Assembly: GCA_032718475.1 (NCBI GenBank)
Contig: JAUCBJ010007040.1
Span: forward strand, 61,638 to 125,637
DNA from: Nemertoderma westbladi
Lineage: Eukaryota; Animalia; Xenacoelomorpha
Length of the DNA stretch: 64,000 bases
Direction of reading: 5' to 3'
The position numbers and the translations under genes were made by a program. Numbering within the stretch: position 1 is the first letter of the stretch; every line of letters starts with the position of its first letter. Shown one piece after another: positions 1,471-54,918 of this stretch. The notes under the pieces were generated by a model. That model had not been told where the DNA came from. It saw nothing but the letters and a program-made list of their open reading frames with translations, and ran no database searches.

Positions 1471-3733
1471 TCATGTCATCCTCACTGGTACATGCCACAG
1501 CTCTGCTGGCCTCCCCCTCAATATGTATACTCTGCCAGCCCCATGTGTGTATACAACACGCCTCCTGAAAACTTTCCTGCCTCCTTTGTCACGCTTCATT
1601 ATCAGCTTCTCCGCCCTTGGTCTCATCTTCCCACATCCTCTCCCATTCCACCCTGTCCTCTTACTCGACCTCCTTCCTATTGGTATGCTTCTCAACTGGA
1701 CCAGTGTCTGCTCCAGACATCTCTCCAGATATCTCACCATCCACTCTTCTCCATCCTCATACCGATACTCGCCAGGTACATCTATGTTCCATCCCATCGC
1801 CTCTAGGTCCTCTGCGTCGAACCCATCCTCCTCCGCCCACTCTCTTGCTGTTGCTTCTCCTCCTGATTCATCTATCGGCGGTATTTTTCTGGACTTATCC
1901 TCCACCCTATCACCACGCTCCACTATGCGTGGTTCCAGATCCATACCCATCCCCGACTCGTGGTATCCTTCCCCGGGTCGCTCCTCACATGGGATCACCC
2001 CATCACCCGTCTTTGACTTCTCCTCTATCTCATCAACAGTACCGGAGAGCATGCATCCTGATGTTTTGGATACACCAAACGGTGTCCTCGTCTTAATGGG
2101 GCCAGTGAGCGTCCATCCAAATAGCGTGAGAATGGCCATCGGGTCTCGCTCCCTGTCATCGCCGAATATGGTCTGTAGTCTCTCGTGGGCTGTCGGGCAA
2201 TCCATGCCGACTATGAGAGATATTTTCGTGACATTCAGTTTGGGTACGAAAAAATCGATGTCATCCTGGTACCACTATTGCTCGACCTTGATCTTCGTGG
2301 GTCGCCTGGCGTTAAAATAAATCGATTCTATTATTTTGATGGGTTCGATGGTAGCCCCACAGTTGCACCCTGGTGTTATCGCTGATATCTCGCAATGCCC
2401 CATTCTCATTCTCATGATCTCGTCCTTATTGGAGATAGTAGTTACCGCCATCTTGCTTAGCCTCGTTCGTAACCCTATCCTTTCGGCCACCCAACTCTCC
2501 GTTAGCGTAAAAAAAAGCTCCACTATCGACCAACATCAGTGTCGTGACCGATAGCCCATCCTCTCCTATTATTCTCACTGGTACTACCCCGAGTAGTACT
2601 GTCCTCTTCCTCCTTGCTCCCACCGTGCTCGTTGCCATTGTTTGGACTCCAGTCTCATCAGTTTCGTTGTGTTTCATCGGTGGTTCCTGGCATTCATTCT
2701 TCCAGTGTCCTCCTACCACGCATTGGTGACATAGTCCATTCTTATCAGCGTAGGATATCCGATCTTGTTTGAGTAACGCCTGCCAATGCTTACAGTCCAT
2801 GGTCTTATGGGTTCCATCTCTATGCAATTGACATTTGTATCCTGGATTGTAGCGTTCCTTGTATAGCCCTTCATGTATTGCGCGTAGATTCATATCTAGT
2901 AGTTTAGTGTTTTGGTTATTTGGACTCGGCCTAATGGGGGTATTGGGTTTGTATTTGTATGTGTTGTTTTGCTTCTGCCCCTGCCATGGTGTGGTTCTAC
3001 TCCCAGCTGCTTGTGGACTAGAAGTCCCCTGCATGGCCGCATGCGGTAGCGACTGTCTCACTCTTGGAAATGCATACGCCGGATTATGTTTGGGTTTAGG
3101 CCTGTTGTATTCAGCTTTCGGTGCCTTCCTCAAACTGTCCTCGCTGTAGACTGGATCTGTATTCAATTCCGCTTCATAGTTAAGGAAGTTTGAAATCTCC
3201 TCTAGCCCTGGCTCAGCACCTTTCTTCTCCTGGGTGGAGAAGGCGATCTTTCTCCACTTGTTCCTCAGCCAGATCGGTAGTGCCTGCGCTATTGTAGTAA
3301 TGTTATTCGATGCATTAAGTTCGTAAGGTGCATCTAGGGTCTTTAATACAATTAGCGCCTTTTCTACTTTATTCGCGAAGGTTTTAATGCTATCAGGGTC
3401 ATCCTGTAGTCTGCCTGATGTTATTCCCCTTAAGGTTTGTCGGATAATCTTTGCAGGATGCCCGAATTCCCTGTCCAGGGCTCGCCATGCAGTCGTGAAT
3501 CCTCCTTCAATACCTTGGAATTGCCTCACGATGTCATATGCTGGCCCCCTTGTGTAGACTTGTAAATATTTAAGGCATTCCGCCTGTGTCAAGTTCTTCG
3601 TTAAAATTTCATTGCTGTACATACGCCGGAATTGCAGATATTCCTCCGGCTTACTACCATCGAATTTGAAGGACTCTACTGGCAGTAGCTCGATCCTGGT
3701 CTTTAGCGTGTCGATGAGTGTTGCCATTTCCAT
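1471..3733 (-). pseudogene. gag: BEL/Pao-type Gag (DUF1759-like, zinc knuckles) and aspartic protease, frameshifted
   Basis: ORF 2426-3733 has CQLHRDGTHKTMDC, CHQCVVGGHWKNEC and LVDSGA; the frame breaks at an A-run near 2509-2517 and continues in ORFs 2275-2523 and 1471-2205. Confidence 0.75.
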
Positions 3734-6700
3734 CGCTTATACTTCCAGCGCGCTTGATGGTTGGGATACAGCCTCCCTTGCTGTTGGGTGCGGTTCTCCT
3801 GCCGGGCCCGTCGACTTTCCTTGCGTTGGATATATCATCGGGGGTAATGGTCCCCTCCATATCTCCGTGTCTCATGACTTATTTGGGTCTGAGGGGTTTG
3901 GGGTTTTTATTCTTGCCTGCATGTATTGCTGATACTGCAATGGGGGAATGTCACACTGCCCCCCCCCCCCCCCCCCCACCGGTGTTATGTTTGGTACTGG
4001 GGTTGATGTTATCATGTTAGGGCCCATGCACCTATTGGCAATACCCCCCCCCCCCCCCCCCCCTCCCCTGGGTATATATTATATCCCTGCATGTTATAGT
4101 CATACTGATGTGCAGGTACCAGTATAGGCCTATCCACTTCTTGCCTACCAACCGGTATGTACACCGCGATTTCCGGGTTTAATCCCGTTGTCCACGCTAC
4201 CCTATCGCCTACACTATCTCTCCCAGCATGGCCTATAGTATGTGCAGTATGGCCTACAGTTTTTCCTGTAGTCTGCATGTGTCCTTCTGGACCAAAGTTT
4301 AATCTTCTCGTGTACTCCAAGAAGTCCTCCCCGCGACTACCATAGTCTCGATCGGCAGCTGCGTTACGACGGGAAGTTTCTCTCTGGTCCCCTCTTCTGT
4401 CCTCATCCTCGTACCAGTACAGTCTGTACCCCTCTCCCGGTGTGTGGTATATCTCTCCAGGTTGTGTTTCTCCGGGGCGATGGCAATCTCCTGAAGTACG
4501 ACCCCACTGGCTTTCTGTCTCCATCTCGACTACTGATGGTTCACTGTCCGTCCTATCCCTCCGGTTGCTCATAGCAACGCTTCCTCTCTTCTCCTCGCCT
4601 CATCCTATTCCAGTGCAGTGTTCCTCCTCATGAGATCTCGCTTCGACCTCGCGTATAAACTCTACTGTGCTTCTTCCGTCTTCGTACTGGGCTCGACGTT
4701 TTCTCGCTCGCCCTCTCACGGCGCCAACGTCTCTCCCTCTGCCCGGTTTGACGGCCCTGGGGAAATTCGCAGTCCCCCTACTATTCTTTGTCGTCGGGTG
4801 CCACAGCTCACTTAACTCGCTGCGCGCATTGTCCACTGACGCTCGTGGGACATTCTCTGGCCCCCCTCTCGACCGCCGTCGGATGCTGTGGTTCACTCAA
4901 CTCACTGCGCACATTACCCGTCGACGCTTGTGGGACATTCTCTGCCCCCTCTCGTCACTAATCGCTTGTGGTAGGGTAGCCGTAGCCCCCCTCCGTCCGT
5001 CACCTCCTACTTCGCCCCTACACTCCCCTCTAGTCGACGCGTTATCTCTACCCTCACTGGGTTTATTCACTCCGGCTCCTCCTGGCGCAACTGCGTGGCC
5101 CTGCATGCTCTCATTGGCTGGCTCACTTGTTCCCCCTACGTTTGTATTAATTGCACTGTTAATAGTTTCGCCCTGGTTTACTATGTCGTTATTAATAATA
5201 TTACTTTGAATAATTTCTTTGGGGTTATTTATTATATTATTATTATTTAAATTATTGTTTAAAATATTTAAATTATTTTGTTCGATATTATTTATATTAT
5301 TATTTAAATTATTTTGCACACCAACATTAGGATTATTACTACTGGGTAAAATATTATTTCCTGCAAGAAAAGTTTGATTAGGGTTATCTATTACGGTACT
5401 ATTAATATTAACTTCACCGGATGTATTATTATTACCCCCCCCCCCCCCCCCCCCACCCATACGGTCACACCAGTCTTGGGTCTGTCATCCAGTACCTGTA
5501 AGTGGGGTATTAACAAAGGTTTCCATCACCTCTGGTTCCTCGTAAATACTACCCGAACCAGCCTCACTCTCCGATAAACCCATTTTTGCCAGTTCTAACC
5601 AGCGCTTTTGCTTCGCTTGGTAATGCATTAACCCTCTCAACCGGGTATGCATATCATCCCGCAAGCGTTTGCCCACGCTCTCTCTTTCTCTATCCTCCCT
5701 CATACTCTGGTTGGCCAATTCTGCCTCACTCGCCTCCCGCTCTCTACGCTCATTCATTTCTCTCTCAATCCTCTCAGCTTTCCTCGCTTCCCGCTCTTTG
5801 CGCTCGTTCTCTTCTCTCTCAATCCTCTAAGTTTTCCTCGCTCCCTGCTCTTTGCGCTCGCTCTCTTCTCTCGTCTCTCGCTCTTTGCGCTCATTTATCT
5901 CTTTCTCTCCTCCCACTCCCTATGGTTTCTCGCCACCCTCTCGGCCCTATCTTTACACTCGCTCGCTAATTCTCTCTCTCTCTCTAGCAACGCAGTTCCC
6001 TTTTCCAACTGCATTTCCACTTCCTTTTGACCCAGTGCAACAATGTCTAATTGACACACCAAATCTATCTCTAACACCCGTCTTGCAATCGCGGAGGATG
6101 TAGCAGACTTATCAGTCGCGACGGACTCCCGTCGCCTCTCTGTCCTGGTAATTTTCCCCCGTTTGCTGGGGTTCCTACTAACCGACGACACCGAATCTTC
6201 AGGGTTAACCTCGGATTCGCTGTCGTGCGGGTCGGCCCATCCCACTATTTTAATCCCCATCGCATCCACTAAGTAAGGCCCTATGTACACTACACCTGCC
6301 TCCATCACCTCGGATCGCCACAATTCAAATAGTTCTGTGGCGACCCCCCTCGCCCTCTCATTCGCCAGTTCCCCCTGTCCAAAATGGACTAAATAACGGA
6401 AATGTTTATTGGACTCACCTAGCCTCTGATATAGTTTAGGCTGGTCTACCTTTCTCCCTTCCTTAGCGTCTTTTAGTATCTTCTTGGTGGCGTTGTATGC
6501 CCGTCACAGGCGATCACTCGTCCCGACATCCTCCTCGTTGACTCTACCTTCCCTCCTCGTCCGGCGTCATACCGTCAGCCCCACCGTCGCCGTTCCAGTA
6601 GGCCGTTCGCCACCCTCAGATAAACTTATATATTAAAATAAAAAAATACCTAAGTTTTGAAATGAATAAAAACAGTGTAGAAAAGTCTAACAAAGCATTT

Positions 6701-10300: not shown

Positions 10301-13300
10301 GTAATTCAGGCTATTCTGGAACTGGTGTTTCCTGCAATGGTAAGCAAATATCAGATAATATTACCAATACAAACAATACAAAACAAACTTCGATACCATC
10401 AACTTAAAATCCTATTATCCTGTCATATTGCTTTTAATTAAATTTTTTTGGAGTATTAATTTGCAAATTCATAATTTAGTAAATTCCTATATTTTGTACT
10501 TCAGACATTGATGAATGTTCTACCAATAGCGATAATTGCCATATTGATGCTAGCTGCACAAACAATGATGGTAATTTTACATGTGCATGCAATTCAGGCT
10601 ATTCTGGAACTGGTGTTTCCTGCAATGGTAAGGAAATAACATAGATAAGATACCGTACATTGTTGGTAGAACCTAACATTTCCTTGACCTCTATATTTTA
10701 CTGTTTACCTACCGGTACCGTGTTACTGTACCCATTTTCCTTATGCTCTATTTGTTATTATTATGGTAGTTATATATGATAGCCCACTCCAAAGTGAATA
10801 AATCTTCTACCGCCCTGGTAGCTCAGTGGTCTTAGGACACACACTCGGCTGATGATAACCGGAAGTTTGAAACCTAGGTACCGAGTTCGAGCCCCAATAG
10901 GGGCGGTTGATATTTTTCACTATGGAGAGCATTATCATAATGTACTATAACATTTATTTAATTCGCCGTCACCCTCCCCACAACAATTCATTTATAATTA
11001 ATTCACACGCATGGCCGGCATACGGGGTTACAGTGGTTTCTACAACACTGGATAATAGTTATTCTTTGAGGCATGGTTGCCATTTCTGGCAGAGCACGGG
11101 AATAACGTTGTACTTTCCTATGAGTGACTGTAAAAGGCCTATATATGATAGCCCACTCCAAAGTGAATAAATCTTCTACCGCCCTGGTAGCTCAGTGGTC
11201 TTAGGACACACACTCGGCTGATGATAACCGGAAGTTTGAAACCTAGGTACCGAGTTCGAGCCCCAATAGGGGCGGTTGATATTTTTCACTATGGAGAGCA
11301 TTATCATAATGTACTATAACATTTATTTAATTCGCCGTCACCCTCCCCACAACAATTCATTTATAATTAATTCACACGCATGGCCGGCATACGGGGTTAC
11401 AGTGGTTTCTACAACACTGTATAATAGTTATTCTTTGAGGCATGGTTGCCATTTCTGGCAGAGCACGGGAATAACGTTGTACTTTCCTATGAGTGACTGT
11501 AAAAGGCCTATATATGATAGCCCACTCCAAAGTGAATAAATCTTCTACCGCCCTGGTAGCTCAGTGGTCTTAGGACACACACTCGGCTGATGATAACCGG
11601 AAGTTTGAAACCTAGGTACCGAGTTCGAGCCCCAATAGGGGCGGTTGATATTTTTCACTATGGAGAGCATTATCATAATGTACTATAACATTTATTTAAT
11701 TCGCCGTCACCCTCCCCACAACAATTCATTTATAATTAATTCACACGCATGGCCGGCATACGGGGTTACAGTGGTTTCTACAACACTGTATAATAGTTAT
11801 TCTTTGAGGCATGGTTGCCATTTCTGGCAGAGCACGGGAATAACGTTGTACTTTCCTATGAGTGACTGTAAAAGGCCTATATATGATAGCCCACTCCAAA
11901 GTGAATAAATCTTCTACCGCCCTGGTAGCTCAGTGGTCTTAGGACACACACTCGGCTGATGATAACCGGAAGTTTGAAACCTAGGTACCGAGTTCGAGCC
12001 CCAATAGGGGCGGTTGATATTTTTCACTATGGAGAGCATTATCATAATGTACTATAACATTTATTTAATTCGCCGTCACCCTCCCCACAACAATTCATTT
12101 ATAATTAATTCACACGCATGGCCGGCATACGGGGTTACAGTGGTTTCTACAACACTGTATAATAGTTATTCTTTGAGGCATGGTTGCCATTTCTGGCAGA
12201 GCACGGGAATAACGTTGTACTTTCCTATGAGTGACTGTAAAAGGCCTATATATGATAGCCCACTCCAAAGTGAATAAATCTTCTACCGCCCTGGTAGCTC
12301 AGTGGTCTTAGGACACACACTCGGCTGATGATAACCGGAAGTTTGAAACCTAGGTACCGAGTTCGAGCCCCAATAGGGGCGGTTGATATTTTTCACTATG
12401 GAGAGCATTATCATAATGTACTATAACATTTATTTAATTCGCCGTCACCCTCCCCACAACAATTCATTTATAATTAATTCACACGCATGGCCGGCATACG
12501 GGGTTACAGTGGTTTCTACAACACTGTATAATAGTTATTCTTTGAGGCATGGTTGCCATTTCTGGCAGAGCACGGGAATAACGTTGTACTTTCCTATGAG
12601 TGACTGTAAAAGGCCTATATATGATAGCCCACTCCAAAGTGAATAAATCTTCTACCGCCCTGGTAGCTCAGTGGTCTTAGGACACACACTCGGCTGATGA
12701 TAACCGGAAGTTTGAAACCTAGGTACCGAGTTCGAGCCCCAATAGGGGCGGTTGATATTTTTCACTATGGAGAGCATTATCATAATGTACTATAACATTT
12801 ATTTAATTCGCCGTCACCCTCCCCACAACAATTCATTTATAATTAATTCACACGCATGGCCGGCATACGGGGTTACAGTGGTTTCTACAACACTGTATAA
12901 TAGTTATTCTTTGAGGCATGGTTGCCATTTCTGGCAGAGCACGGGAATAACGTTGTACTTTCCTATGAGTGACTGTAAAAGGCCTATATATGATAGCCCA
13001 CTCCAAAGTGAATAAATCTTCTACCGCCCTGGTAGCTCAGTGGTCTTAGGACACACACTCGGCTGATGATAACCGGAAGTTTGAAACCTAGGTACCGAGT
13101 TCGAGCCCCAATAGGGGCGGTTGATATTTTTCACTATGGAGAGCATTATCATAATGTACTATAACATTTATTTAATTCGCCGTCACCCTCCCCACAACAA
13201 TTCATTTATAATTAATTCACACGCATGGCCGGCATACGGGGTTACAGTGGTTTCTACAACACTGTATAATAGTTATTCTTTGAGGCATGGTTGCCATTTC

Positions 13301-16300
13301 TGGCAGAGCACGGGAATAACGTTGTACTTTCCTATGAGTGACTGTAAAAGGCCTATATATGATAGCCCACTCCAAAGTGAATAAATCTTCTACCGCCCTG
13401 GTAGCTCAGTGGTCTTAGGACACACACTCGGCTGATGATAACCGGAAGTTTGAAACCTAGGTACCGAGTTCGAGCCCCAATAGGGGCGGTTGATATTTTT
13501 CACTATGGAGAGCATTATCATAATGTACTATAACATTTATTTAATTCGCCGTCACCCTCCCCACAACAATTCATTTATAATTAATTCACACGCATGGCCG
13601 GCATACGGGGTTACAGTGGTTTCTACAACACTGTATAATAGTTATTCTTTGAGGCATGGTTGCCATTTCTGGCAGAGCACGGGAATAACGTTGTACTTTC
13701 CTATGAGTGACTGTAAAAGGCCTATATATGATAGCCCACTCCAAAGTGAATAAATCTTCTACCGCCCTGGTAGCTCAGTGGTCTTAGGACACACACTCGG
13801 CTGATGATAACCGGAAGTTTGAAACCTAGGTACCGAGTTCGAGCCCCAATAGGGGCGGTTGATATTTTTCACTATGGAGAGCATTATCATAATGTACTAT
13901 AACATTTATTTAATTCGCCGTCACCCTCCCCACAACAATTCATTTATAATTAATTCACACGCATGGCCGGCATACGGGGTTACAGTGGTTTCTACAACAC
14001 TGTATAATAGTTATTCTTTGAGGCATGGTTGCCATTTCTGGCAGAGCACGGGAATAACGTTGTACTTTCCTATGAGTGACTGTAAAAGGCCTATATATGA
14101 TAGCCCACTCCAAAGTGAATAAATCTTCTACCGCCCTGGTAGCTCAGTGGTCTTAGGACACACACTCGGCTGATGATAACCGGAAGTTTGAAACCTAGGT
14201 ACCGAGTTCGAGCCCCAATAGGGGCGGTTGATATTTTTCACTATGGAGAGCATTATCATAATGTACTATAACATTTATTTAATTCGCCGTCACCCTCCCC
14301 ACAACAATTCATTTATAATTAATTCACACGCATGGCCGGCATACGGGGTTACAGTGGTTTCTACAACACTGTATAATAGTTATTCTTTGAGGCATGGTTG
14401 CCATTTCTGGCAGAGCACGGGAATAACGTTGTACTTTCCTATGAGTGACTGTAAAAGGCCTATATATGATAGCCCACTCCAAAGTGAATAAATCTTCTAC
14501 CGCCCTGGTAGCTCAGTGGTCTTAGGACACACACTCGGCTGATGATAACCGGAAGTTTGAAACCTAGGTACCGAGTTCGAGCCCCAATAGGGGCGGTTGA
14601 TATTTTTCACTATGGAGAGCATTATCATAATGTACTATAACATTTATTTAATTCGCCGTCACCCTCCCCACAACAATTCATTTATAATTAATTCACACGC
14701 ATGGCCGGCATACGGGGTTACAGTGGTTTCTACAACACTGTATAATAGTTATTCTTTGAGGCATGGTTGCCATTTCTGGCAGAGCACGGGAATAACGTTG
14801 TACTTTCCTATGAGTGACTGTAAAAGGCCTATATATGATAGCCCACTCCAAAGTGAATAAATCTTCTACCGCCCTGGTAGCTCAGTGGTCTTAGGACACA
14901 CACTCGGCTGATGATAACCGGAAGTTTGAAACCTAGGTACCGAGTTCGAGCCCCAATAGGGGCGGTTGATATTTTTCACTATGGAGAGCATTATCATAAT
15001 GTACTATAACATTTATTTAATTCGCCGTCACCCTCCCCACAACAATTCATTTATAATTAATTCACACGCATGGCCGGCATACGGGGTTACAGTGGTTTCT
15101 ACAACACTGTATAATAGTTATTCTTTGAGGCATGGTTGCCATTTCTGGCAGAGCACGGGAATAACGTTGTACTTTCCTATGAGTGACTGTAAAAGGCCTA
15201 TATATGATAGCCCACTCCAAAGTGAATAAATCTTCTACCGCCCTGGTAGCTCAGTGGTCTTAGGACACACACTCGGCTGATGATAACCGGAAGTTTGAAA
15301 CCTAGGTACCGAGTTCGAGCCCCAATAGGGGCGGTTGATATTTTTCACTATGGAGAGCATTATCATAATGTACTATAACATTTATTTAATTCGCCGTCAC
15401 CCTCCCCACAACAATTCATTTATAATTAATTCACACGCATGGCCGGCATACGGGGTTACAGTGGTTTCTACAACACTGTATAATAGTTATTCTTTGAGGC
15501 ATGGTTGCCATTTCTGGCAGAGCACGGGAATAACGTTGTACTTTCCTATGAGTGACTGTAAAAGGCCTATATATGATAGCCCACTCCAAAGTGAATAAAT
15601 CTTCTACCGCCCTGGTAGCTCAGTGGTCTTAGGACACACACTCGGCTGATGATAACCGGAAGTTTGAAACCTAGGTACCGAGTTCGAGCCCCAATAGGGG
15701 CGGTTGATATTTTTCACTATGGAGAGCATTATCATAATGTACTATAACATTTATTTAATTCGCCGTCACCCTCCCCACAACAATTCATTTATAATTAATT
15801 CACACGCATGGCCGGCATACGGGGTTACAGTGGTTTCTACAACACTGTATAATAGTTATTCTTTGAGGCATGGTTGCCATTTCTGGCAGAGCACGGGAAT
15901 AACGTTGTACTTTCCTATGAGTGACTGTAAAAGGCCTATATATGATAGCCCACTCCAAAGTGAATAAATCTTCTACCGCCCTGGTAGCTCAGTGGTCTTA
16001 GGACACACACTCGGCTGATGATAACCGGAAGTTTGAAACCTAGGTACCGAGTTCGAGCCCCAATAGGGGCGGTTGATATTTTTCACTATGGAGAGCATTA
16101 TCATAATGTACTATAACATTTATTTAATTCGCCGTCACCCTCCCCACAACAATTCATTTATAATTAATTCACACGCATGGCCGGCATACGGGGTTACAGT
16201 GGTTTCTACAACACTGTATAATAGTTATTCTTTGAGGCATGGTTGCCATTTCTGGCAGAGCACGGGAATAACGTTGTACTTTCCTATGAGTGACTGTAAA

Positions 16301-19300
16301 AGGCCTATATATGATAGCCCACTCCAAAGTGAATAAATCTTCTACCGCCCTGGTAGCTCAGTGGTCTTAGGACACACACTCGGCTGATGATAACCGGAAG
16401 TTTGAAACCTAGGTACCGAGTTCGAGCCCCAATAGGGGCGGTTGATATTTTTCACTATGGAGAGCATTATCATAATGTACTATAACATTTATTTAATTCG
16501 CCGTCACCCTCCCCACAACAATTCATTTATAATTAATTCACACGCATGGCCGGCATACGGGGTTACAGTGGTTTCTACAACACTGTATAATAGTTATTCT
16601 TTGAGGCATGGTTGCCATTTCTGGCAGAGCACGGGAATAACGTTGTACTTTCCTATGAGTGACTGTAAAAGGCCTATATATGATAGCCCACTCCAAAGTG
16701 AATAAATCTTCTACCGCCCTGGTAGCTCAGTGGTCTTAGGACACACACTCGGCTGATGATAACCGGAAGTTTGAAACCTAGGTACCGAGTTCGAGCCCCA
16801 ATAGGGGCGGTTGATATTTTTCACTATGGAGAGCATTATCATAATGTACTATAACATTTATTTAATTCGCCGTCACCCTCCCCACAACAATTCATTTATA
16901 ATTAATTCACACGCATGGCCGGCATACGGGGTTACAGTGGTTTCTACAACACTGTATAATAGTTATTCTTTGAGGCATGGTTGCCATTTCTGGCAGAGCA
17001 CGGGAATAACGTTGTACTTTCCTATGAGTGACTGTAAAAGGCCTATATATGATAGCCCACTCCAAAGTGAATAAATCTTCTACCGCCCTGGTAGCTCAGT
17101 GGTCTTAGGACACACACTCGGCTGATGATAACCGGAAGTTTGAAACCTAGGTACCGAGTTCGAGCCCCAATAGGGGCGGTTGATATTTTTCACTATGGAG
17201 AGCATTATCATAATGTACTATAACATTTATTTAATTCGCCGTCACCCTCCCCACAACAATTCATTTATAATTAATTCACACGCATGGCCGGCATACGGGG
17301 TTACAGTGGTTTCTACAACACTGTATAATAGTTATTCTTTGAGGCATGGTTGCCATTTCTGGCAGAGCACGGGAATAACGTTGTACTTTCCTATGAGTGA
17401 CTGTAAAAGGCCTATATATGATAGCCCACTCCAAAGTGAATAAATCTTCTACCGCCCTGGTAGCTCAGTGGTCTTAGGACACACACTCGGCTGATGATAA
17501 CCGGAAGTTTGAAACCTAGGTACCGAGTTCGAGCCCCAATAGGGGCGGTTGATATTTTTCACTATGGAGAGCATTATCATAATGTACTATAACATTTATT
17601 TAATTCTGATAATTGCCACATTAATGCAAGCTGCATGAACAGTGATGGTAGTTTCTCCTGTGCATGTAATTTGGGCTACACTGGCAATGGTGTTTCCTGC
17701 AGTGGTAAGCACATATCATCTTATATTAGCAATACAATATAAAGTTGACATTATCTTGTTAACTTAAGACTATTTATTATCCATGGCATATGACTTTGAT
17801 GTTTCTGCAATTAGGATTTGTGAATTTAGAATTTAATAAATTCCCATTTTTTTTGATCTTCAGATATTGATGAATGTTCTACCAATACTGATAATTGCCA
17901 CATTCATGCAAGCTGCTCGAACAATGATGGTAGTTTTACATGTGTATGTAATTCAGGCTATTCTGGGACTGGTGTTTCCTGCAATGGTAAGCAAATACCA
18001 GATAATATTACCAATACAAACAATACAAAACAAACTTCGACACCATCACCTTAAAATCCTATTATCCTGTCATATTGCTTTTAATTTAATTTTTTTGGAG
18101 TATTAATTTGCAAATTCATAATTTAGTAAATTACTAATTTTTGTACTTCAGACATTGATGAATGTTCTACCAATAGCGATAATTGCCATATTGATGCTAG
18201 CTGCACAAACAATGATGGTAATTTTACATGTGCATGCAATTCAGGCTATTCTGGAACTGGTGTTTCCTGCAATGGTAAGGAAATAACATAGATACTGTAC
18301 ATTGTTGGTAGGACCTAACATTTCCTTGACCTCTATATTTTACTGTTTACCTACCGGTACCGTGTTACTGTACCCATTTTCCTTATGCTCTATTTGATAT
18401 TATTATGGTAGGTGCTTAAATGCACAACGAGCAACAATGACCAACAACGAGCAACAATGACCAACAACGAGCAACAATGAGCAACAATGAGCAACAACAA
18501 GCAACAACGAGCACCAATGAGCAACAACGAGCAACAATGAGCAACAACTAGCACCAATGAGCGACAACGAGCAACAACGAGCACCAATGAGCAACAACGA
18601 GCACCAATGAGCGACAACGAGCACCAATGAGCGACAACGAGCAACAACGATCACCAATGAACAACAATGAGCAACAATGAGCAACAACGAGCAACAGTGA
18701 GCAACAACGAGCAACAACGAGCACCAATGAGCAATAAACGAGCAACAATAGGCAAAAATAATAAACTCGTTGTTGCTCATTGTCGCTCAATGTTGCTCGT
18801 TGTTGCTCATTGGTGCTCGTTTTTGCTCGCTGTTGCTCGTTGTTGCTCATTGTTGCTCGTTGTTGTACTTTATTATAGCTCGTTGTTGCTCGTTGTTGCT
18901 CATTGGTGCTCGTTTTTACACATTGTTGCTCGTTGTTGTACATTATTATAACTCGTTGTTGCTCGTTGTTGCTCATTGTTGCTCGTTGTTGCTCATTGGT
19001 GCTCGTTGTTGCGCGTTGTTGCTCATTGTTGCTTGTTGTTGCTCGTTGTTGCTCGTTGTTGCTCATTGTTGCTCGTTGTTACTCATTGTTGCTCATTGTT
19101 GCTCGTTGTTGCTCATTATTGCTCGTTGTTGCTCATTGTTGCTCGTTGTTATTCGTTGTTGTTCATTGTTGTTCGTTGTTGCTCATTGTTGTTCGTTGTT
19201 GTACTTTATTATTGCTCAATGTTACTCATTGTTGCTCGTTGTTACTCATTGTTGCTCGTTGTTGGTCATTGTTGCTCGTTGTGCATTTTAGCACCTACTA

Positions 19301-22300
19301 TTTACCTTGTCAGCTTGTTACATTGTCAAATTTAAAGGATTGGCCATAGGCCTACCTATTCCCTATCACATGCTTATCCCCTTTATCTGGTGTGGTGGCA
19401 ACGTTGTGGATACGACCTCACAAAAGATTTCAACTGAAATTCACTAGAACCCCAACCCTACAAGCCTATACCAGTATATACTTACGGGGTCGGCAGTATT
19501 TACTAACCATCATTATTTAGGTATGCCAGGGAGTTAACGAAACTGCCTCGGATAAACCTTGTTAAGAACTGCCATAAAATAAATATATTGAAATTGTCTG
19601 GGTCTATTAACATTCCTGCAGATATCGCAAGTCCAAAATGCCCTTGAGTGTCTTACTCCAACCTGCCAAATTTAAAAATTTCGCACCAAAAATTGGAGTC
19701 ATGTCAAACAACCTCTCAATGATCTGTCATCCAACTATCGCCACACAAGAAGATGACCAAAGTGATGGTATTATCACTTATACAGGGTCAGTTGTGATGA
19801 TAAAGCTTTGTTCAGTACTTTTCCTACAGGTAGTATTCAGCATGAGCATAGTGATGACATACAAGATGAAGATGATACCCCAATCTTCATCACTCTCTCT
19901 ACTTGGCTACCCCTAAAAGGCGAGTGTGCATATCTTTGCCTTATCAAACCCACATAATACAGGGCACTCAACCTCCAGATGTGAGACAGGAATCCGAGAC
20001 ATGAAATTATATATTGTGTTGGCTACTTTATCACATGATGGACTTGTACAGGTTCGCCATTCCTAACCCCTTACTGCAACAAAGGAGCTCATTGTTGTCC
20101 CACATTCTGTTATAGGTGGACTTCTCAATGCTTATACACTTTAGGTTAAATCACCCTTCCACCTCCCAGCTTCGACATTATCACATACTATTTTTCAGCA
20201 CTGGACTTAGAACAGTCACTTGTTCAAATAGCACCTCATTGTCACCATTGTAATTCCTTAAATAAAGTGCCATGTTTTGCTGTTGACCAAACTACTGCCA
20301 TTATAGTAATTATTACTGCCAGTAGTAGGAACCTCGTTTGCAGCTGATATTCTTTGACAATCAAACAGTATATTTTAGTAGTATGAAAAGGATTTACTGC
20401 TTATACTACTACATGTATCATACCTGATGAGAAAGGGGCGACATTACGTTATCGACAATAAGATTATGTTCAGGTTTAACACCACTTCAAGGCTCACACT
20501 GCAACGTACGAGTTGACCCTGGTACTGGATTCAACTCACTGAAAGATGATCATGGTCTCTGTTATCATATTCAATTCAATTCAATTCAATATATATTTTC
20601 CAAATGCTTAACAAATGATACAATAAATTGCACAATAATTACTGTACAATATATATTGTAAATACGTAATTATAAAGTAAATTATAAAGTAAATGGGGGA
20701 TTTAGCACAGGACAGGACACCAGCGAATAGCTGTAATAGCTAGTAGCGTGCTGGTGCCCTGGGGGGGGGGGGGGGGGGGGGGGGTACGTTACGTTTGCTA
20801 CTAGTGTTACATGATATAATTTTAATATACATAGATATGAGTATTGAAATTTATATTTATTACTTCGTGCAGCACCAATCGTAATACGTGGACGGACGCT
20901 ACACTGCCGCCAAGGAAAAACAAGATTTGTATAATAAAACTAAATTTAAATTTAAATACTGGATGATTTAATTTTTCGTAGTTGATAATAATGGAGGAGA
21001 ATATTGCAAGGTAATTCCAAATATCTATATAGTTTCAAGTAGATATCTCTTAAGATTTTTAGCAAATGTTGATTTGGTTTTCTTTTGTTTAATTATACGT
21101 GGGATAGAATTCCACACGGACGGGCCCCGAAAACTGATGGTTTGCTGACTAGATACTAAACGAACTAAAGGGATCTGATAATTATCAGCAGCTACTGACC
21201 GGGTGTTATATTGGTGAACAGAAGAAGTTAAAGTAAAAAGATTTGATATTAAGGGTGGAACATCTATTAGTTTATTGTGCAATTCGTACATGAATATACC
21301 TACCTGTTGTTTATAGAGTTGATCTAATGGGAGTATGCCTAACTGTTTATAAATAGGTAAAGAAGATGACCGGTAGTGACTACGTGTAATACAGCGAAGG
21401 ATCTTGTTTACTTTAATTCTGATCGGTTTTAGAACAGAAGAGAATGTACCGCCCCAAACTATAATGCCGTAAAGTAGATAAGGATGCACAAGTGAATAGT
21501 AAAGCTGGCGTAAAATATTAAGAGGAAAAATATACCGAAGTTTATAAAATATCCCAGCCGTTTTGGAAATTTTTTGAATTATGTGCTGAATATGAGTTTT
21601 AAAATTTAACTGTTTATCAACCCAGATGCCCAAGATTTTGCTGGATTGTGTATACTTAATTTTAATATTATTAATTTCAACTCTAGATAGATTATAGGTA
21701 CTGTGAATATTTGAAAAAAATGTTGCTTCAGTTTTAGTCAAATTAAGTGACAAAGCGTTATCCATCAGCCAATCTGAAATTTTAGTTAGTTCAGAGTTTA
21801 GTTCTGATATTAAAATATTGGGATTTTTATGTGAATAGAGTAAGGTTGTATCGTCAGCAAAAAGTGCAGGAAAAAGTTTGGAAGCCCGGGGGAGATCATT
21901 TATATATAATAAAAATAAAGTGGGAGATAGGACGCCCCCTTGCGGAACACCACAAAGAAGTGGCTCTAGAGAAGACAAAAAATTACCTAGCTTTACGAAT
22001 TGCTGCCTGGATGCAAGAAAATTTTCGAATAATTGGAGCGGTACACCTCTGACTCCGTATCTTTCGAGCTTATTTAATAGAATTTTATAATTTAAGGTAT
22101 CAAAAGCTTTTGATAGATCAATGTAAACAGCGCACGATGCGTCCTTTTCTTCGAGGGCCGTGTGAATCTGTTCTAAAACCGATAGAATTGCATGTGAGGT
22201 TGTTCTTTTAGGCCTAAAACCGAACTGAGATTGAGAGATAATTTTAAATTTTGATAAATAAGAAATAAGTTGTGTATTGATAATAGTTTCGAAAATTTTA

Positions 22301-25300
22301 GTTAATACCGGTAGTAGGGAAATAGGTCTAAAGTTCGTAGGATTACTCGCGTTACCACCCTTATGTAATGGAATAACTTTAGCAATCTTTAGCGAATCAG
22401 GATAAAAACCAGAAGAAAAAGATAAGTTGATTAGACTACTTAAGTGTATTGATAGCGGTTTAGCTGCGAGGATTAGGAGCTTAGTAGGAAAAGGATCATT
22501 AGAGGCGGATTTAGGATCTAGGTGTAATAGGCGGTATTCTACTTCAACTGGAGTGGTTTCGGTAAGACCAAAACTATTGTTATTAGAATGTGAAATATGA
22601 CGTAGATAAGAACGGTTAGATTTAGGTATTTTATCTGCTAATTTCGGTCCTATTGTAGAGAAGTGATTATTTAAGGTATTAGCGATTTCGGATGGATCAG
22701 TAATTGTCCTAATAGAATCGCCTGAGCCGGTAATTAATTTTTTTGGGATCAAGGAATTTTTAGATCTATTAAGTGCACTGTTAATTATTATCCAAGTTTT
22801 TTTAATGTTTCCAGAATTTTTTTCAAATTGTGCCGAATAGTATTCCTTTTCAGCCTTACGCAATAAATTAAGTAGTTTATTTCTAAAACGTTTAAAAGAT
22901 TCAAGATTTATGTCATTTGGATGTTTAATATATGTACGATATAAATTATTTTTAATTATAGTCAATTTAATTAATTTGGGAGTAAGCCACGGTTTTCTTG
23001 GAAGTTCGCGAGATGGGATTGTTTTTTTAGGAACATGCGAGTTTGTGATTTTCGAAAAATCAATCTTATACTCGATGTTGGGTGTAAGAAGAACACAAAC
23101 AAGAAGACCATGCACTGCTAAGAGAGCAGTGCAGGAACTATGTTATGAGATTTTCAAGGAAGATCCCTGTGGAAATATAATCTCACCAACAATGTTGATG
23201 TTGGTTAGGCCTACCTCTCGTCTCAATTCCAAACTGATATCCTCTGTCCTTTCTGCATGTGAGATGCTTTACCAACATGATCAGTAATCAATGTTCGTAA
23301 CCCTATCCTTTCGGCCACCCAACTCTCCGTTAGCATGAATGCTGCTCCACTATCGACCAACATCAGTGTCGTGACCGATAGCCCGTCCTCTCCTATTATT
23401 CTCACTGGTACTACAGCGAGTAGTACTGTCCTCTTCCTCCTTGCTCCCATCGTGCTCGTTGCCATGGTTTGGCCTCCAGTCTCATTTGTCTCGTCGTGTT
23501 TCATCGGTGGTTTCTGGCATTCATCCAGTGTCCTCCTACCGCGCATCGGTGACATAGTCCATTCTTATCAGCATAGGCTATCCGATCTTGTTTGAGTAAC
23601 GCCTGCCAATGCTTACAGTCCATGGTCTTATGGGTTCCATCAATATGCAATTGACATTTGTATCCTGGATTGTAGCGTTCCTTGTATAGCCCTTCACATA
23701 TCACGCGTAGATTCATATCTAGCAGTTTAGTGTTGCATTCTGTGCTCAAAAAACACTGAACAACGAAATGTAAGCCGACTACTGATTCGAAATGACTCAG
23801 ATAGATTGCTTACTAATATCCTACAGCGTTTGAATAAACCACCCGTTCCAAGGCAAAACTAATATTTCTGAAATGTTCTAAATGTTGCTGCTAATTAAGG
23901 CAAAAAGGTGATACCCACATTTAAATATCACATGACTGAGTCAAGCTAAATTTGCTATATTGTAATCTAGATTTAGCGTAGTACTTTCAATATAATCTAG
24001 GACTAATTTTGTAATAAATATAAATTGAAATCTGACAGCCGAGTTCCGTTAATTATCGGCTATAAGCCGCTTTTACGCAGGTCCCATTTCCAAATAATAT
24101 CATTTTGGCTTCTCCAAAACTGTAATACTTCCAATGAACCAACCGAAAGGGAGAGTCTGTCTATTATGGATGATCAAATAGCTAACCAGCCCAGCGTGTG
24201 ATAGTGAATGATCCCCAAAATCGAAAGTCGGCCTAGTGATAGAAATATATATAATCAGAATTGTTAGTCCCCCAAATAATCCCAATGAAATGTAGAATCG
24301 AAGCACCTATTTTTACTGTCGATTCCCCTCCCAAAACTAGGAATGGTTGGAAATGGGCTGGGCTGTTCAATAATCTAATGCGGTAATACGACCTTTAATC
24401 CAAAATGTACTAATTAAATCAAAAAAATCCTAGGTGTTAGCGAATTCAATTCCGCTAACCACCCCATAAAGTTGGGAAAGCGGTGCCTTTAAGCAATATT
24501 GGGGAGTACGAGGTTGATTACCAACCAACCTCGTATCACCCCCAATGAACGGGGACGACAAACCCCAAAGGGCCGTACACAATGGGGGTCAGAGGTTACA
24601 CCTCCGGGAGAGGGAAAGTAACAGTAGCAAAGGGGGAAACACTCCCAGAGAGATGGGAGGCGAGAATTAGGTTACTAGCCAATGGGGGGCAAGCATCCGC
24701 TGAGTGATAGGGCCAATGTAGGGTGATTAGATATATATTACCGGTCGGTGCCCATAACATTCAGTAATTTGCTCAGTCACATTATTGTTTGCAGAACGGT
24801 GACACTTTAAGACCGTCACCGTCGTCACCAATACACATTATCATTAACGGTATACTGTGATGTCATTACTCTGTCTATCTTATATACATATATCTTATCA
24901 ATAATACTGGAAGAACGACAAACTCTTTTCTTTCATTCGCACGGCGTGGATGCGTATATAAACCAAACAGGTTGGGATCCTCTGATCCCGTCACAGTCTT
25001 AAAGTCTAAGAACTGCCAAATTGTGACTGCCAGCCACCAGAGAAGAACAGAGTAAAGATGAGTCAAGAGGGAAAAGGACACCGCCATGGACCCCGGATGA
25101 CAACCTAACGATCCGCGCGGCCGCGGCGAGACGGTATCGACCCACAAGGCCGGATTCGTCGACTACAGACGATCCGGCAATCCAAGCGGAGGGGGGCTGT
25201 CTACAACGAGGACGAGAGGACGAGTCGACACGCGGCGGCGGTCGAGTTACCGATGTCGCCGGCCAGCCACAGGCCGAGGGCGACAGACGGCCCACCGGAA

Positions 25301-28300
25301 CGGCGATGGTGGGGCCGCCAGTACGACGCCTAACACAGAGAGAAAGAGGGGACGTCGGCGACGAGGACGTCGGAGTCAGCGACCGGCTCCGACGAGTCTA
25401 CAACGCGACGAGGAGGCAACTGAAGGAAGCCAAAGAAGGAGCTTTTATATTTCATCGACATATCAGCCTGCTGTGACGCGTACTTACTAGACCCGGTCGG
25501 GATCCCTCGATCCCGTCACACTTATCATATTTAGTATAACAGTAAATTGACCAGATTATTTGCATAGTTACTATTTGAATCAATCGGATACTAAATTACG
25601 AGACCCCCCCCCCCCCCCCCAGCTCTCTCCCTGTGTTTAGCATTTTACTGGCCTTGCTATTTTAACTGTCCAACTATTCAATTATTCTTTCCCTCTCTGA
25701 CACTAAACCATTGATTACATATAAAAATTAATTTGGGTGATAAAATATTTATATTTGCAAAATTATCAAGGCCACATAACGCCGATTTACACTTACACGC
25801 TAATTTAAAATTAACTTTCTAATAAGTTTACTCATTATACTTTATTTTTTTTACGTAGTTTACTTTAACACTTTTTGAAATTAGTTTCCTTTTATAATTA
25901 ACTCGTTTTTATATTTAAAACTAGAAAGCCAGCAAGCTGGCTGGAAGGAGCCCGGAGGAAGAATCCTATTTACAAGACTATTACAAATAAACCTTGTCGG
26001 TCAGCAGTAAGTAAACTAAACAATTGTCTAAACTATAAGGCGTGGGGCTAGCTGACTTTGTGTCTCGTCCCACATAATAAAAATAGGAAACTTTGCTATG
26101 ACAACACACCCGGTTCTTTTAAATTTGAGTTTTATGCCTGCACCACTATTTGTAAAAAATGTTAAAACTTATCTTACAGTATGCCAATGTAGTAATGGTA
26201 TTAAAATATAATTAAATTAATTTACACTATGCATATATCACATATTACACAATTTACACTAATGCTTCAGCTAAAAAATGATGCTAATCCTATGTAATAA
26301 AAACAATAAGAATATTATTTTTAAGAACTTTCTACATATATCCTATACAAAATAACCAGCCCAATGATTCGTGGAATAATAATATAATCCTACTGCATTT
26401 GTATATTTTATTTTGTTTATTGACAACTCAACTATTTTCTGTCTATCCCTGAGAGCTGATAAAGGATGTGTAGACTCAGCCAGCAGCCAGCAGCAGGAGG
26501 GGTGTAGTCAAGAAATTCTGCCTTGATGGAATTATATCTCATGCAGCCCTGCACTCAACCATTACTACACAGCTAGCTGCTGCAGCAGCTCAGGGAGGAG
26601 TTGTTACTTTACTATTGCTTTTTATTTCGCGACAAAATAATTTCAAAAAAACGAAATATATCGAATACCACACATACAATCTATCTGATATTTTGCAACG
26701 CGATTATGAACCACCAAAGCAATTTACTTTCAAAATTTCAACAAAATCGCCAGGCAGGAAGTGCCTGAACCTTGATAATTATCAGTCAGTCAGTCAGTGT
26801 TATATATCCTGAGATTTTTACAGTAAGTATCCCTTAGATTTTTGAACCACCATAGCAATTTACTTTTAAAATTCAACAAAATCGCCAGGCAGGAAGTGCA
26901 TGAACCTTGATAATTATCAGTCAGTCAGTCAGTCAGTCAGTGTTATATATCCTGAGATTTTTACAGTAAGTATCCCGCAGATTTTTACAGTAAAATTTTT
27001 ACATTAAAATTTACATTGGAATTTCTGTACAATCTAAGTAGGTTAGGTTAGGTTAGTTAGCTAGGTTAGTCTCTTTTAATGATCATTCTCAACTCACTCT
27101 CAGCTCACTCTCCACACTATTGCTGATGAAAGTCGATGAAACTGATCCTGATTCCAATCTGTCAATGGTCTAAGATCACTAGATGACGATGGTCCCGCCA
27201 TGTATAGGCTCAACTGACGACTCATTTCAAATTTCTTTGAAGTAGACGGTAGAAGATAGGAAGTCGTTGTGGATAGATTCATGTGCCCTAGGTGTCTGTG
27301 AACTGTGTGTGCTGTGTCTGTTAACCTCTGTGCTAGGTTAACTGGTTGGCCACCATCTACCAATGCTTGGGGTGCCGTTTTACGACAGGAAATAGGGGTA
27401 AGCTTCTTTCCTCCTTGTATCCCAGCTTTCGTTATTAGAATCGTAAACATTTTAGCGAATTGATGCTTTCCTACTGGTTGCTCACAGAACCATTTCTCAC
27501 TTGGCTTGGTGTTATGCTTTGGACATATGAAGTATGGCTGCAAACCATCTACCTTTCCATCGGGGAAACGTTTCATTATGTAGAAGTCATGAAGTGTAAC
27601 TGCACACAGACTTCGATCCGCTTTGTACTCATACTACTACTAGGATCGGCATGCTGCATTGCAGCTGCATTTTTAAGAATGCTGTGCCGGCTTGTCAACA
27701 AAATTGCACCGCCACAACTCCCTATCACCCATGACATTTGCTAGATCATCCGCATCTTTAAGGCCAGTGTCCTTTAAGATGCGTCTCAAGAAAGTCATGG
27801 GCTGTCCACCATGCTTATTCGCTCCATGAGGCTGCCAAAGTACAAGATTATGCACTGGCTGGTCCTCACGGCGAAAGCAATGTCCTGCAAAGCGGAGGCG
27901 ATTTTGTTCTAGTGTCAAGCTTGGGGGAACCAATGAGACACCTCCAATGTTATATAGTGTCTGGTTGGAGATGTGTGCATTGTACTTGACACAATGAACC
28001 CGGCGTAGCATTCTTGTGAATGTGCCATCCAGAGATTTGGTGTCCTCAGCAGTTAGAGCCCAGCATGGACTCCCGTAGAGGAGTACTGGAACTACTGCTG
28101 CTCTAAATAATCGGACCTTGGACCTTTTTTTGTACTCATAAGCACTTGGTGAAAATTCCCTGGGGGCCGAATCGTCGTGTCACATCTTTGTACTACATTC
28201 CTTTAGTTTTAGGTAGTATATAAGCCATCTTCAGGGTTATAGTGCTTTGTTATGTCGCCCACAAGTATTTTTCTCATCTCCTCGTCTGGACGAGCTCCAA

Positions 28301-53506: not shown

Positions 53507-53638
53507 GTAAGGAAATAACATAGATACTGTACATTGTTGGTAGGACCTAACATTTCCTTGACCTCTATATTTTACTGTTTACCTACCGGTACCGTGTTAC
53601 TGTACCCATTTTCCTTATGCTCTATTTGATATTATTAT

Positions 53639-54918
53639 GGTAGGTGCTTAAATGCACAACGAGCAACAATGACCAACAACGAGCAACAATGACCAACAAC
53701 GAGCAACAATAAGCAACAATGAGTAACAACAAGCAACAACGAGAACCAATGAGCAACAATGAGCAACAACTAGCACCAATGAGCGACACCGAGCAACAAC
53801 GAGCACCAATGAGCAACAACGAGCACCAATGAGCGACAACGAGCAACAACGATCACCAATGAGCAACAACGAGCAACAATGAGCAACAATGAGCAACAAC
53901 GAGCAACAGTGAGCAACAACGAGCAACAACACGAGCAACAACGAGCACCAATGAGCAATAAACGACAACAATAGGCAAAAATAATAAACTCGTTGTTGCT
54001 CATTGTTGCTCATTGTCGCTCAATGTTGCTCGTTGTTGCTCATTGTTGCTCGTTGTTGTACTTTATTATAGCTCGTTGTTGCTCATTGGTGCTCGTTTTT
54101 ACACATTGTTGCTCGTTGTTGTACATTATTATAGCTCGTTGTTGCTCGTTGTTGCTCATTGTTGCTCGTTGTTGCTCATTGGTGCTCGTTGTTGCGCGTT
54201 GATGCTCATTGTTGCTCGTTGTTGCTCATTGTTGCTCGTTGTTGCTCGTTGTTACTCATTGTTGCTCATTGTTGCTCGTTGTTGCTCATTATTGCTCGTT
54301 GTTGCTCATTGTTGCTCGTTGTTGTTCGTTGTTGTTCATTGTTGTTCGTTGTTGCTCATTGTTGTTCGTTGTTGTACTTTATTATTGCTCAATGTCACTC
54401 ATTGTTGCTCGTTGTTACTCATTGTTGCTCGTTGTTGCTCATTGGTGCTCGTTGTTGCGCGTTGATGCTCATTGTTGCTCGTTGTTGCTCATTGTTGCTC
54501 GTTGTTGCTCGTTGTTACTCATTGTTGCTCATTGTTTCTCGTTGTTGCTCATTATTGCTCGTTGTTGCTCATTGTTGCTCGTTGTTGTTCGTTGTTGTTC
54601 ATTGTTGTTCGTTGTTGCTCATTGTTGTTCGTTGTTGTACTTTATTATTGCTCAATGTTACTCATTGTTGCTCGTTGTTGCTCATTGTTGTTCGTTGTTG
54701 GTCGTTGTTGCTCATTGTTGTTCGTTGTTGGTCATTGTTGTTCGTTGTTGCTCATTGTTGTTCGTTGTTGTACTTTATTATTGCTCAATGTTACTCATTG
54801 TTGCTCGTTGTTGCTCATTGTTGCTCATTGTTGCTCATTGGTGCTCGTTGTTGGTCATTGTTGCTCATTGGTGCTCGTTGTTGGTCATTGTTGCTCGTTG
54901 TGCATTTTAGCACCTACC
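53639..54918. mobile_element. Foldback/MULE-like element (copy 4, expanded right arm)
   Basis: Same TIRs and TATTATTAT TSD. Confidence 0.85.

Follow-up and report, generated by a model that had tools for sequence, protein, structure and literature searches.

A 369-bp hammerhead repeat of Nemertoderma westbladi, very probably a retrozyme, with a tRNA-like cassette and candidate RNA polymerase III promoter boxes

The tandem array and its hammerhead

We analyzed a stretch of 64,000 nucleotides of the Nemertoderma westbladi genome (contig JAUCBJ010007040.1, positions 61,638 to 125,637, forward strand; hereafter the window). It contains a non-coding tandem repeat in which a hammerhead ribozyme sits inside a transfer RNA (tRNA)-like cassette with candidate RNA polymerase III (Pol III) promoter boxes. 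The array is composed of 18 full units of 369 bp and a 194-bp remainder, and it holds 19 hammerheads (Table 1). Seventeen of the units were identical and unit 1 deviated from them by one base (11051), a total of one difference in 6836 bases. This near-identity would fit a single event of rolling-circle reverse transcription. An initial annotation of this DNA had described one cassette. We found its motifs in place, but the cassette is part of unit 1 of a tandem array of an abundant family and not a free-standing gene; the 369-bp period and the extent of the array (10771-17606, 18.5 copies) were absent from that annotation. No further copies of the unit were found elsewhere in the window, and no stop-to-stop open reading frame (ORF) of at least 150 aa was found within the array, whose GC content was 39-43%. 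The repeat is a young one in an animal genome.

Table 1 Features of the array, of unit 1 and of the junctions.
Feature	Position	Strand	Remarks
Tandem retrozyme array (very probable identity)	10771..17606	+	369-bp unit x 18.5, 19 hammerhead cassettes, non-coding
Unit 1, holding the cassette under study	10771..11139	+	
Type I hammerhead	10843..10886	+	Helix I 10843-48/10881-86; core 10849-55, 10869-72; helix III palindrome 10872-79; predicted cut after A10880
tRNA-like 5' end, positions 1-19	10812..10829	+	Exact 18-mer opens tRNA genes called by ARAGORN in viral contigs
Pol III A box	10819..10829	+	11/11 to consensus
Pol III B box	10884..10894	+	10/11; 11/11 with family-common G at 10884; overlaps helix I
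Acceptor-like 3' strand (tRNA positions 66-72)	10898..10904	+	Exact register
Five-T run (T5), candidate Pol III terminator	10913..10917	+	Sole run of at least four T on the + strand of the unit; all five pair in the long hairpin
TATA-like stretch	10770..10777	+	About -30 from putative start 10801-10807; weak; also tip of the long hairpin; putative function
Left arm, long imperfect hairpin	10771..10818	+	Includes acceptor-like 5' strand
Right arm, long imperfect hairpin	10896..10944	+	
Left junction	10765..10770	+	First 5 bases of a foldback DNA element's terminal inverted repeat and one additional base
Right junction	17602..17606	+	5-nt microhomology between array end and EGF exon

Metazoan retrozymes without long terminal repeats (non-LTR retrozymes) are described as head-to-tail non-coding units of 170-400 bp with less than 45% GC, one type I hammerhead each and a self-paired monomer (Cervera and de la Pena 2020, PMC7229834). 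The array likewise consists of tandem non-coding units within 150-450 bp, with low GC and a type I hammerhead in each. Since its unit size, GC content and layout fall within the range described in that source, they support the identity of the 369-bp repeat as a metazoan non-LTR retrozyme, which we regard as very probable. The closest known systems are the axolotl repeat Rtz_353 with its hammerhead HHR_Amex2 and the 350-390-bp repeats of mussels (PMC7229834).

The hammerhead has the CUGANGA, GAAA and UH core elements and three helices, and it ends in helix I, as expected for type I. Helix I has 6 bp, the core is complete, helix II consists of a U.U and 3 bp beyond it, and the 8-nt palindrome of helix III forms 2 bp and a tetraloop. 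The G10.1-C11.1 pair at the base of helix II, which is typical and not strictly required, is replaced by the U.U, with no listed family variant. Both a 2-bp helix III with a tetraloop and the U.U at the base of helix II are shared with HHR_Amex2, an active hammerhead whose monomer cleaves 22%/h and whose dimer cleaves much more (PMC7229834). Dimerization through a palindromic helix III is the general model proposed in PMC4209133. The best Rfam match was RF02275 HH9, a type I family, at 21.3 bits (E 0.0023), below its gathering threshold of 52; at the gathering threshold, the whole window gave 0 matches. A search of a 500-bp stretch at E 10 returned a pseudoknot as its sole match, which was taken as chance. 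From its sequence, the hammerhead is predicted to cut its own RNA after A10880.

The tRNA-like cassette and its family

The hammerhead was found to lie between a tRNA-derived head and tail, as the initial annotation had proposed. In tRNA numbering, G10812 is position 1, T10819 position 8, T10886 position 54 and C10904 position 72. With the register set by T8 and T54, the G10812-C10904 pair falls in the exact 1:72 register of a tRNA. The tRNA 5' end and A box that had been claimed were recovered letter for letter over 10812-10829, with a full match of the A box. The B box and the acceptor-like 3' strand also lie at the places given for them, the latter in register, and the 3' strand of helix I (10881-10886) does overlap the B box. 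The run of five T reported to follow the cassette is present, but starts 8 nt beyond position 72 and not directly after it. We took the box consensus and the spacing rule for the TATA-like stretch from PMC10137851. The two boxes match the consensus, are correctly ordered and have a workable spacing, as in a type 2 Pol III promoter.

Among 20,000 dinucleotide-shuffled versions of the unit, none contained a strict A and B pair at a distance of 25-90 nt and 45 contained a loose pair; the search patterns had been composed with the sequence already in view. By this measure the boxes are above chance. No A and B pair was found in the rest of the window on either strand. The exact 18-mer of the head was found in 37 viral contigs and begins a tRNA gene called by ARAGORN in 35 of them (25 distinct sequences). 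The tail of the cassette matched 15 distinct tails of those viral-contig tRNAs at 11-17 of 25 positions; this agreement arises in part because the acceptor strands of those tRNAs must complement the same head. An isotype or donor was not assigned from the matching heads, which belong to phage or bacterial-type tRNAs, mostly Arg(TCT), and do not identify a donor.

The cassette itself is not a tRNA. Neither ARAGORN at default settings nor Rfam at E 10 called a tRNA in it, and the T-stem is degraded, keeping 2 of 5 pairs (3 of 5 with the common letter of the family). The acceptor-like stem has four Watson-Crick pairs, two wobbles and one mismatch. The D-loop region, which may resemble that of tRNA-Sec, gave no tRNA-Sec match in Rfam. 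A call by ARAGORN at relaxed settings, which passes at 87% of the threshold and not at 89%, was rejected, since shuffled sequences yielded calls in 91 of 1000 cases at 85% and in 459 of 1000 at 80%. Between the A box and helix I, a small side hairpin (10829-10838; 3 bp and a 4-nt loop) keeps its stem and changes its loop in a divergent subfamily, and it may be a remnant of the D-arm. The unit shares with tRNA-derived short interspersed nuclear elements (SINEs) a tRNA-related head with A and B boxes. The label of a tRNA-SINE, given in the initial annotation, had to be dropped all the same: the repeat has no A-rich or LINE-like (long interspersed nuclear element) 3' tail and no target-site duplication, and it forms a head-to-tail array that ends mid-unit by microhomology. 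We consider that the tRNA-like remnant likely serves as the element's own Pol III promoter.

To characterize the family, we compared the unit with sequencing runs. Four DNA runs from three studies of one organism carry at least two thirds of the unit's words; no RNA run was listed as carrying it, which says nothing about expression. Four of the nine listed runs were aligned to the unit, and variants of at least 1% were tabulated for two runs in a table that is not exhaustive. The aligned contigs numbered 1528 (run X1), 87 (X2) and 811 (X4), which are numbers of contigs and not of copies. Two low-depth contigs from the fourth run (X5), which comes from a second organism and is RNA by guess, were not used as evidence; one of them is identical across a unit junction. 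The family contigs leave into many different flanks, as expected of a multi-copy family, and many end just beyond the right arm in AT-rich flanks. No depth step was found at the cleavage site, and thus no sign of copies truncated by the cut.

Variant frequencies are given here as unphased depth shares of contigs from one species, and joint changes are therefore apparent compensation and not proven covariation. The core, the palindrome, the U.U, T5 and B-box positions 53-62 were all free of listed variants of at least 1%. A10884G reached 91-97% of depth and completes box B; together with T10845C (57-70%), it changes a U-A pair of helix I to C-G. A second apparent compensation was found in the outer part of the long hairpin, where T10795C (61-70%) and A10919G (94%) change U-A to C-G. 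A10792T (50-54%) closes a mismatch of the hairpin, whose AT-rich tip loses pairs through the common changes at 10773, 10940 and 10944. At both pairs that change from U-A to C-G, the surplus of one change over the other gives U.G wobbles workable on the + strand only. Box A has minor variants, among them G18 to T (3.5% and 10% in two runs, 47% in the small run X2). A-box-like letters were also found in the loose ends of divergent copies, in X4 at 11211 (3 contigs, agreement 0.91) and in X1 at 11206 (34 contigs, 0.43).

Two side observations were made in the family contigs. A second block of high depth, at 11065-11116 (unit positions about 295-345), is found in the spacer at a distance from the ribozyme and is possibly a conserved element. 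In one X1 contig (joint 11213-11266), the flanks are the same but helix I and the start of the core differ, pointing to a second hammerhead variant in related repeats of the organism. Outside this organism, the unit pattern matched 58 metagenome and 34 viral sequences; a single one of these got through a weak filter for hammerheads, with a helix I of 4 bp and without an A box, and was taken as chance; the sole match in a prokaryote genome was unrelated.

RNA folding, transcription and comparison with known systems

The initial annotation had proposed an extended stem that clamps helix I. The stem exists and is longer still, extending outward by about 33 further pairs to span 10771 to 10944, but the clamp is also present in the fold in which the ribozyme is blocked. 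The 180-nt hairpin region folded with a z-score of -4.3 (0 of 300 shuffles), and the outer arms alone reached -22.9 kcal/mol against -9.9 +/- 2.8 for shuffles (0 of 2000); the z-score of the whole 369-nt monomer was -1.3. Any Pol III start would lie downstream of the TATA-like stretch, which the hairpin spans; at its other end, the hairpin runs past T5. Since the hairpin and one apparent compensatory change extend outside the stretch from putative start to putative terminator, selection likely acts on a read-through multimer or a circle and not on a 105-nt transcript.

In this copy, helix I was absent from the predicted folds in short, rod and circular contexts (probability P 0.01-0.03), and the hammerhead fold would cost 5 kcal/mol. 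A two-unit transcript was predicted to form the scaffold of a double hammerhead, with P 0.96 for the inter-unit helix III and P 0.78 for the cross helix I, 5.8 kcal/mol below two single hammerheads. The inner hairpin of the two-unit fold is also the fold of the cleaved monomer and brings both of its ends together. The model thus predicts a ribozyme that is blocked as a monomer and forms in a dimer. These values do not sustain the proposal of the initial annotation that a self-cleaving monomer of about 105 nt is the main product.

Our preferred reading, in which we place moderate confidence, is that the repeat is a retrozyme with its own tRNA-derived Pol III promoter, whose read-through multimers would be processed by double hammerheads to 369-nt monomers, closed into circles and returned to the genome as arrays by a borrowed reverse transcriptase (RT). 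In each unit, TFIIIC would bind the two boxes across their 54-nt spacer, and transcription by Pol III would begin near 10801-10807. T5 would end many of the transcripts, giving an RNA of about 110 nt whose monomer is predicted to be blocked, and those that read through would meet no other run of four T until the next unit. In them, the palindromic helix III and the hairpin arms of neighboring units are predicted to pair. The resulting double hammerhead would cleave after GUA and set free 369-nt monomers with ends held by helix I and the long stem. A ligase of the RtcB type, shown in vitro to circularize the axolotl and mussel retrozymes (PMC7229834), could then close the monomers into circles. 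With microhomology at a DNA break to prime it, an RT would copy along the circle and produce identical head-to-tail arrays. By analogy with the link made in PMC7229834 and bioRxiv 10.64898/2026.07.22.740005, Penelope-like elements are the likely source of this RT. Because the cut would fall between the boxes, a linear monomer would have B first and A last, and only tandem or circle-derived copies would rebuild both promoter and ribozyme.

A more specific version seems doubtful to us. It holds that a tRNA gene received the hammerhead in its anticodon region, with one strand acting as helix I, T-stem remnant and B box; that the Pol III promoter is active; that the cut splits promoter and ribozyme, leaving only circle-derived tandem copies alive; and that T5 sets the ratio of short tRNA-shaped RNAs, acting as partners in trans, to the read-through multimers that become circles.

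Several points weigh against a retrozyme transcribed by Pol III from its own promoter and processed as a dimer. An efficient terminator at T5 would oppose the transcription of multimers, and 1287 of 5000 shuffles have at most one run of four or more T, so that one per unit is not rare; the scarcity of such runs was rejected as a sign of Pol III read-through. The A-B spacer of 54 nt exceeds the 32-43 nt of tRNA genes, while 7SL has 52 (PMC10137851). In the family, acceptor pair 2:71 is broken in about 73% of depth, where G10903 is replaced by C or T and 10813 has no matching change. The boxes are intact in most depth but no better conserved than the bases around them, with listed variants at 3 of 22 box positions and at 22 of 231 positions overall, and A-box depth is 6-20x below B-box depth, so most aligned contigs fall short of the A box. 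As for folding, the minimum-energy fold of the dimer still lacks helix II (a cost of 4.8 kcal/mol), and the folding model favors a dimer for any palindrome and leaves tertiary contacts outside. With the family-common letters, helix I of the monomer forms (P 0.9, cost 3.1 kcal/mol), so the block of the monomer may be specific to this subfamily. The hairpin is more stable on the minus strand than on the plus strand (-65.3 vs -59.3; core z-score -3.5 vs -1.6), and the strand is therefore not fixed by energies alone. At the locus, the near-identity of the units also fits recent DNA amplification or assembly polishing, the short-read contigs do not confirm the number of 18.5 copies, and the array has no target-site duplication. 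No Penelope element was seen in the window, where the RT ORFs were only RVT_1 and none of the 7 proteins scanned had a GIY-YIG domain.

The alternative that survives best, which we nevertheless consider unlikely, is a retrozyme whose tRNA or tRNA-SINE head and tail are fossils, with a dead or minor promoter and RNA supplied by RNA polymerase II (Pol II) read-through of an intron of the EGF-repeat (EGF, epidermal growth factor) gene around the array. On this view, their pairing in helix I and the long hairpin would be what preserves the boxes and T5. In its favor, the B box shares bases with helix I, the A box is paired with it in the clamp, all five T are paired in the hairpin, and the boxes show no excess conservation. 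EGF_CA exons on the + strand flank the array on both sides, and the hammerhead repeats of newts appear to be transcribed by Pol II (PMC6765202). Against it, the T-loop-like bases 10887-10888 are unpaired in the hammerhead fold yet have no listed variant, and the 11/11 A box, the spacing and the position of the terminator are all retained. The family-common letter also improves box B, and A-box letters are kept in divergent copies.

It is improbable that each unit is a Pol III gene whose main product is a tRNA-shaped self-cleaving RNA of about 105-115 nt, alone or paired, with multimers as a by-product. The layout is fully gene-like, with TATA-like stretch, A box, B box and a T5 at 8 nt after position 72. 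Two short RNAs are also predicted to pair in trans into a double-hammerhead scaffold (-83.8 vs -73.6 kcal/mol), and helix I of the monomer does form with the family-common letters. On the other side, a blocked monomer is predicted for this copy, the short transcript leaves out part of the hairpin and one apparent compensatory pair, and a short RNA is unable to template the observed 369-bp units. Finally, a satellite at the DNA level, in which a once-mobile unit or foldback element with an inactive ribozyme was amplified by unequal crossover or extrachromosomal circles or was expanded in the assembly, would agree with an array that joins two paralogous gene copies (15 substitutions left vs right) within a tandemly duplicated region, with a hairpin strong on both strands and with the failure of 8 of 9 tested Xenopus retrozyme dimers to cleave (bioRxiv 10.64898/2026.07.22.740005), but is made highly improbable by the core that is intact across the family, the apparent covariation with wobble intermediates on the + strand and the dispersed copies with many different flanks.

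[quoted passage not shown] In Sm-alpha, the whole promoter lies upstream of the hammerhead and comes to stand at the 3' end of cleaved units (PMC6765202), and many copies score as whole tRNA-Gln genes (PMC2770079). In the Nemertoderma unit, compared with these by description, the tRNA is interrupted by the hammerhead, box B and helix I have bases in common, and the predicted cut separates the two boxes, leaving box B 3' of it. The analogy with Sm-alpha drawn in the initial annotation holds at the level of design, while the layout differs. No description of a natural hammerhead between boxes A and B was found in the literature searched, and the layout may stand unremarked in published families (retrozyme supplements, Ferbeyre 1998, Lunse 2017). 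What would be new relative to Sm-alpha is the place of the ribozyme between the boxes, so that the predicted cut splits the promoter sequence.

Such an arrangement has a man-made parallel. Cotten and Birnstiel in 1989 and Yuyama in 1992 reportedly engineered a hammerhead into a tRNA gene for transcription by Pol III. Those tRNA-embedded ribozymes are artificial and act in trans, whereas the Nemertoderma cassette is natural, is predicted to act in cis and forms part of a repeat. If active, it would be their natural counterpart, the same bases would act as a DNA promoter and an RNA helix, and the need of such elements for tandem arrangement would be explained.

For the retrozymes of PMC7229834, the main text names no promoter ('pol III' occurs 0 times, and both mentions of 'promoter' refer to T7), whereas the Nemertoderma unit carries A and B boxes and T5 around the ribozyme. 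Expression and circles were demonstrated for those retrozymes; the Nemertoderma repeat is known from sequence alone. The retrozyme literature consulted is silent on the transcription of metazoan non-LTR retrozymes, for which the Nemertoderma family suggests an internal tRNA-derived Pol III promoter round the ribozyme. The hammerheads in the pseudo-LTRs (pLTRs) of Penelope-like elements are similar in being of type I, with a palindromic helix III, possible action as dimers and a tandem arrangement (PMC4209133; bioRxiv 10.64898/2026.07.22.740005). The Nemertoderma repeat differs from them in its canonical 6-bp helix I, in place of the minimal form, and in having no G10.1-C11.1 pair and no ORF in the array, where a Penelope-like element would have an RT plus GIY-YIG ORF between its pLTRs. 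With tRNA-derived SINEs and Helenus terminal-repeat retrotransposons in miniature (TRIMs), it shares tRNA-derived A and B boxes in a non-autonomous retroelement (PMC10886601). Those elements are described there without a ribozyme, while the Nemertoderma repeat lacks a LINE-like tail and a target-site duplication, and no primer-binding site or polypurine tract was noticed in it.

Insertion site and surroundings of the array

The array is in sense orientation between EGF_CA exons on the + strand. Two of five exon translations matched EGF_CA, and the three unmatched ones were probably cut out of frame. The foldback DNA element that is interrupted at the left junction is intact in four related copies, and the junction lies 5 bases inside the start of this fifth copy. 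An 805-bp duplicate in the flanks was rejected as a giant target-site duplication, as its left and right copies differ by 15 substitutions and 3 indels. The right flank is 0-2 substitutions from three other paralogs, and the two flanks are diverged paralogs. The arrangement fits an insertion at a DNA break in which the DNA separating two gene copies was lost. At the right junction, the splice acceptor of one EGF exon has been removed, and the 19 hammerheads lie sense within one of the EGF-repeat gene's introns. Active hammerheads in this place would cleave the pre-mRNA of the host and probably inactivate this EGF-repeat paralog.

The tandemly duplicated gene region occupies 7.1-20.5, 28.1-31.6, 43.0-46.7 and 51.2-55.6 kb of the window, in paralogous blocks that are 95-99% identical, and carries 277-290-bp repeats that each comprise one EGF_CA exon and intron. 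The four copies of the foldback element lie at about 18407-19297, 30529-31595, 44471-45361 and 53638-54916. The element has a 10-bp unit in two inverted arrays and terminal inverted repeats, with a 9-bp AT-rich target-site duplication in three of the four copies, and is Mutator-like by these features.

The window is rich in the remains of retroelements. ORFs at 21025-23142, 35307-36599, 2426-3736 and 27100-27633, all on the minus strand, comprise LINE-type RT ORFs (RVT_1), a gag-like DUF1759 ORF and a weak match to DUF3504, and additional gag-like copies lie at about 37.5-42.3 kb and 58-60 kb. In one viral contig (L107, 533 kb), positions 47-194 hold two adjacent phage tRNA genes with a CTA anticodon, labeled Pyl by ARAGORN, which are likely amber suppressors.

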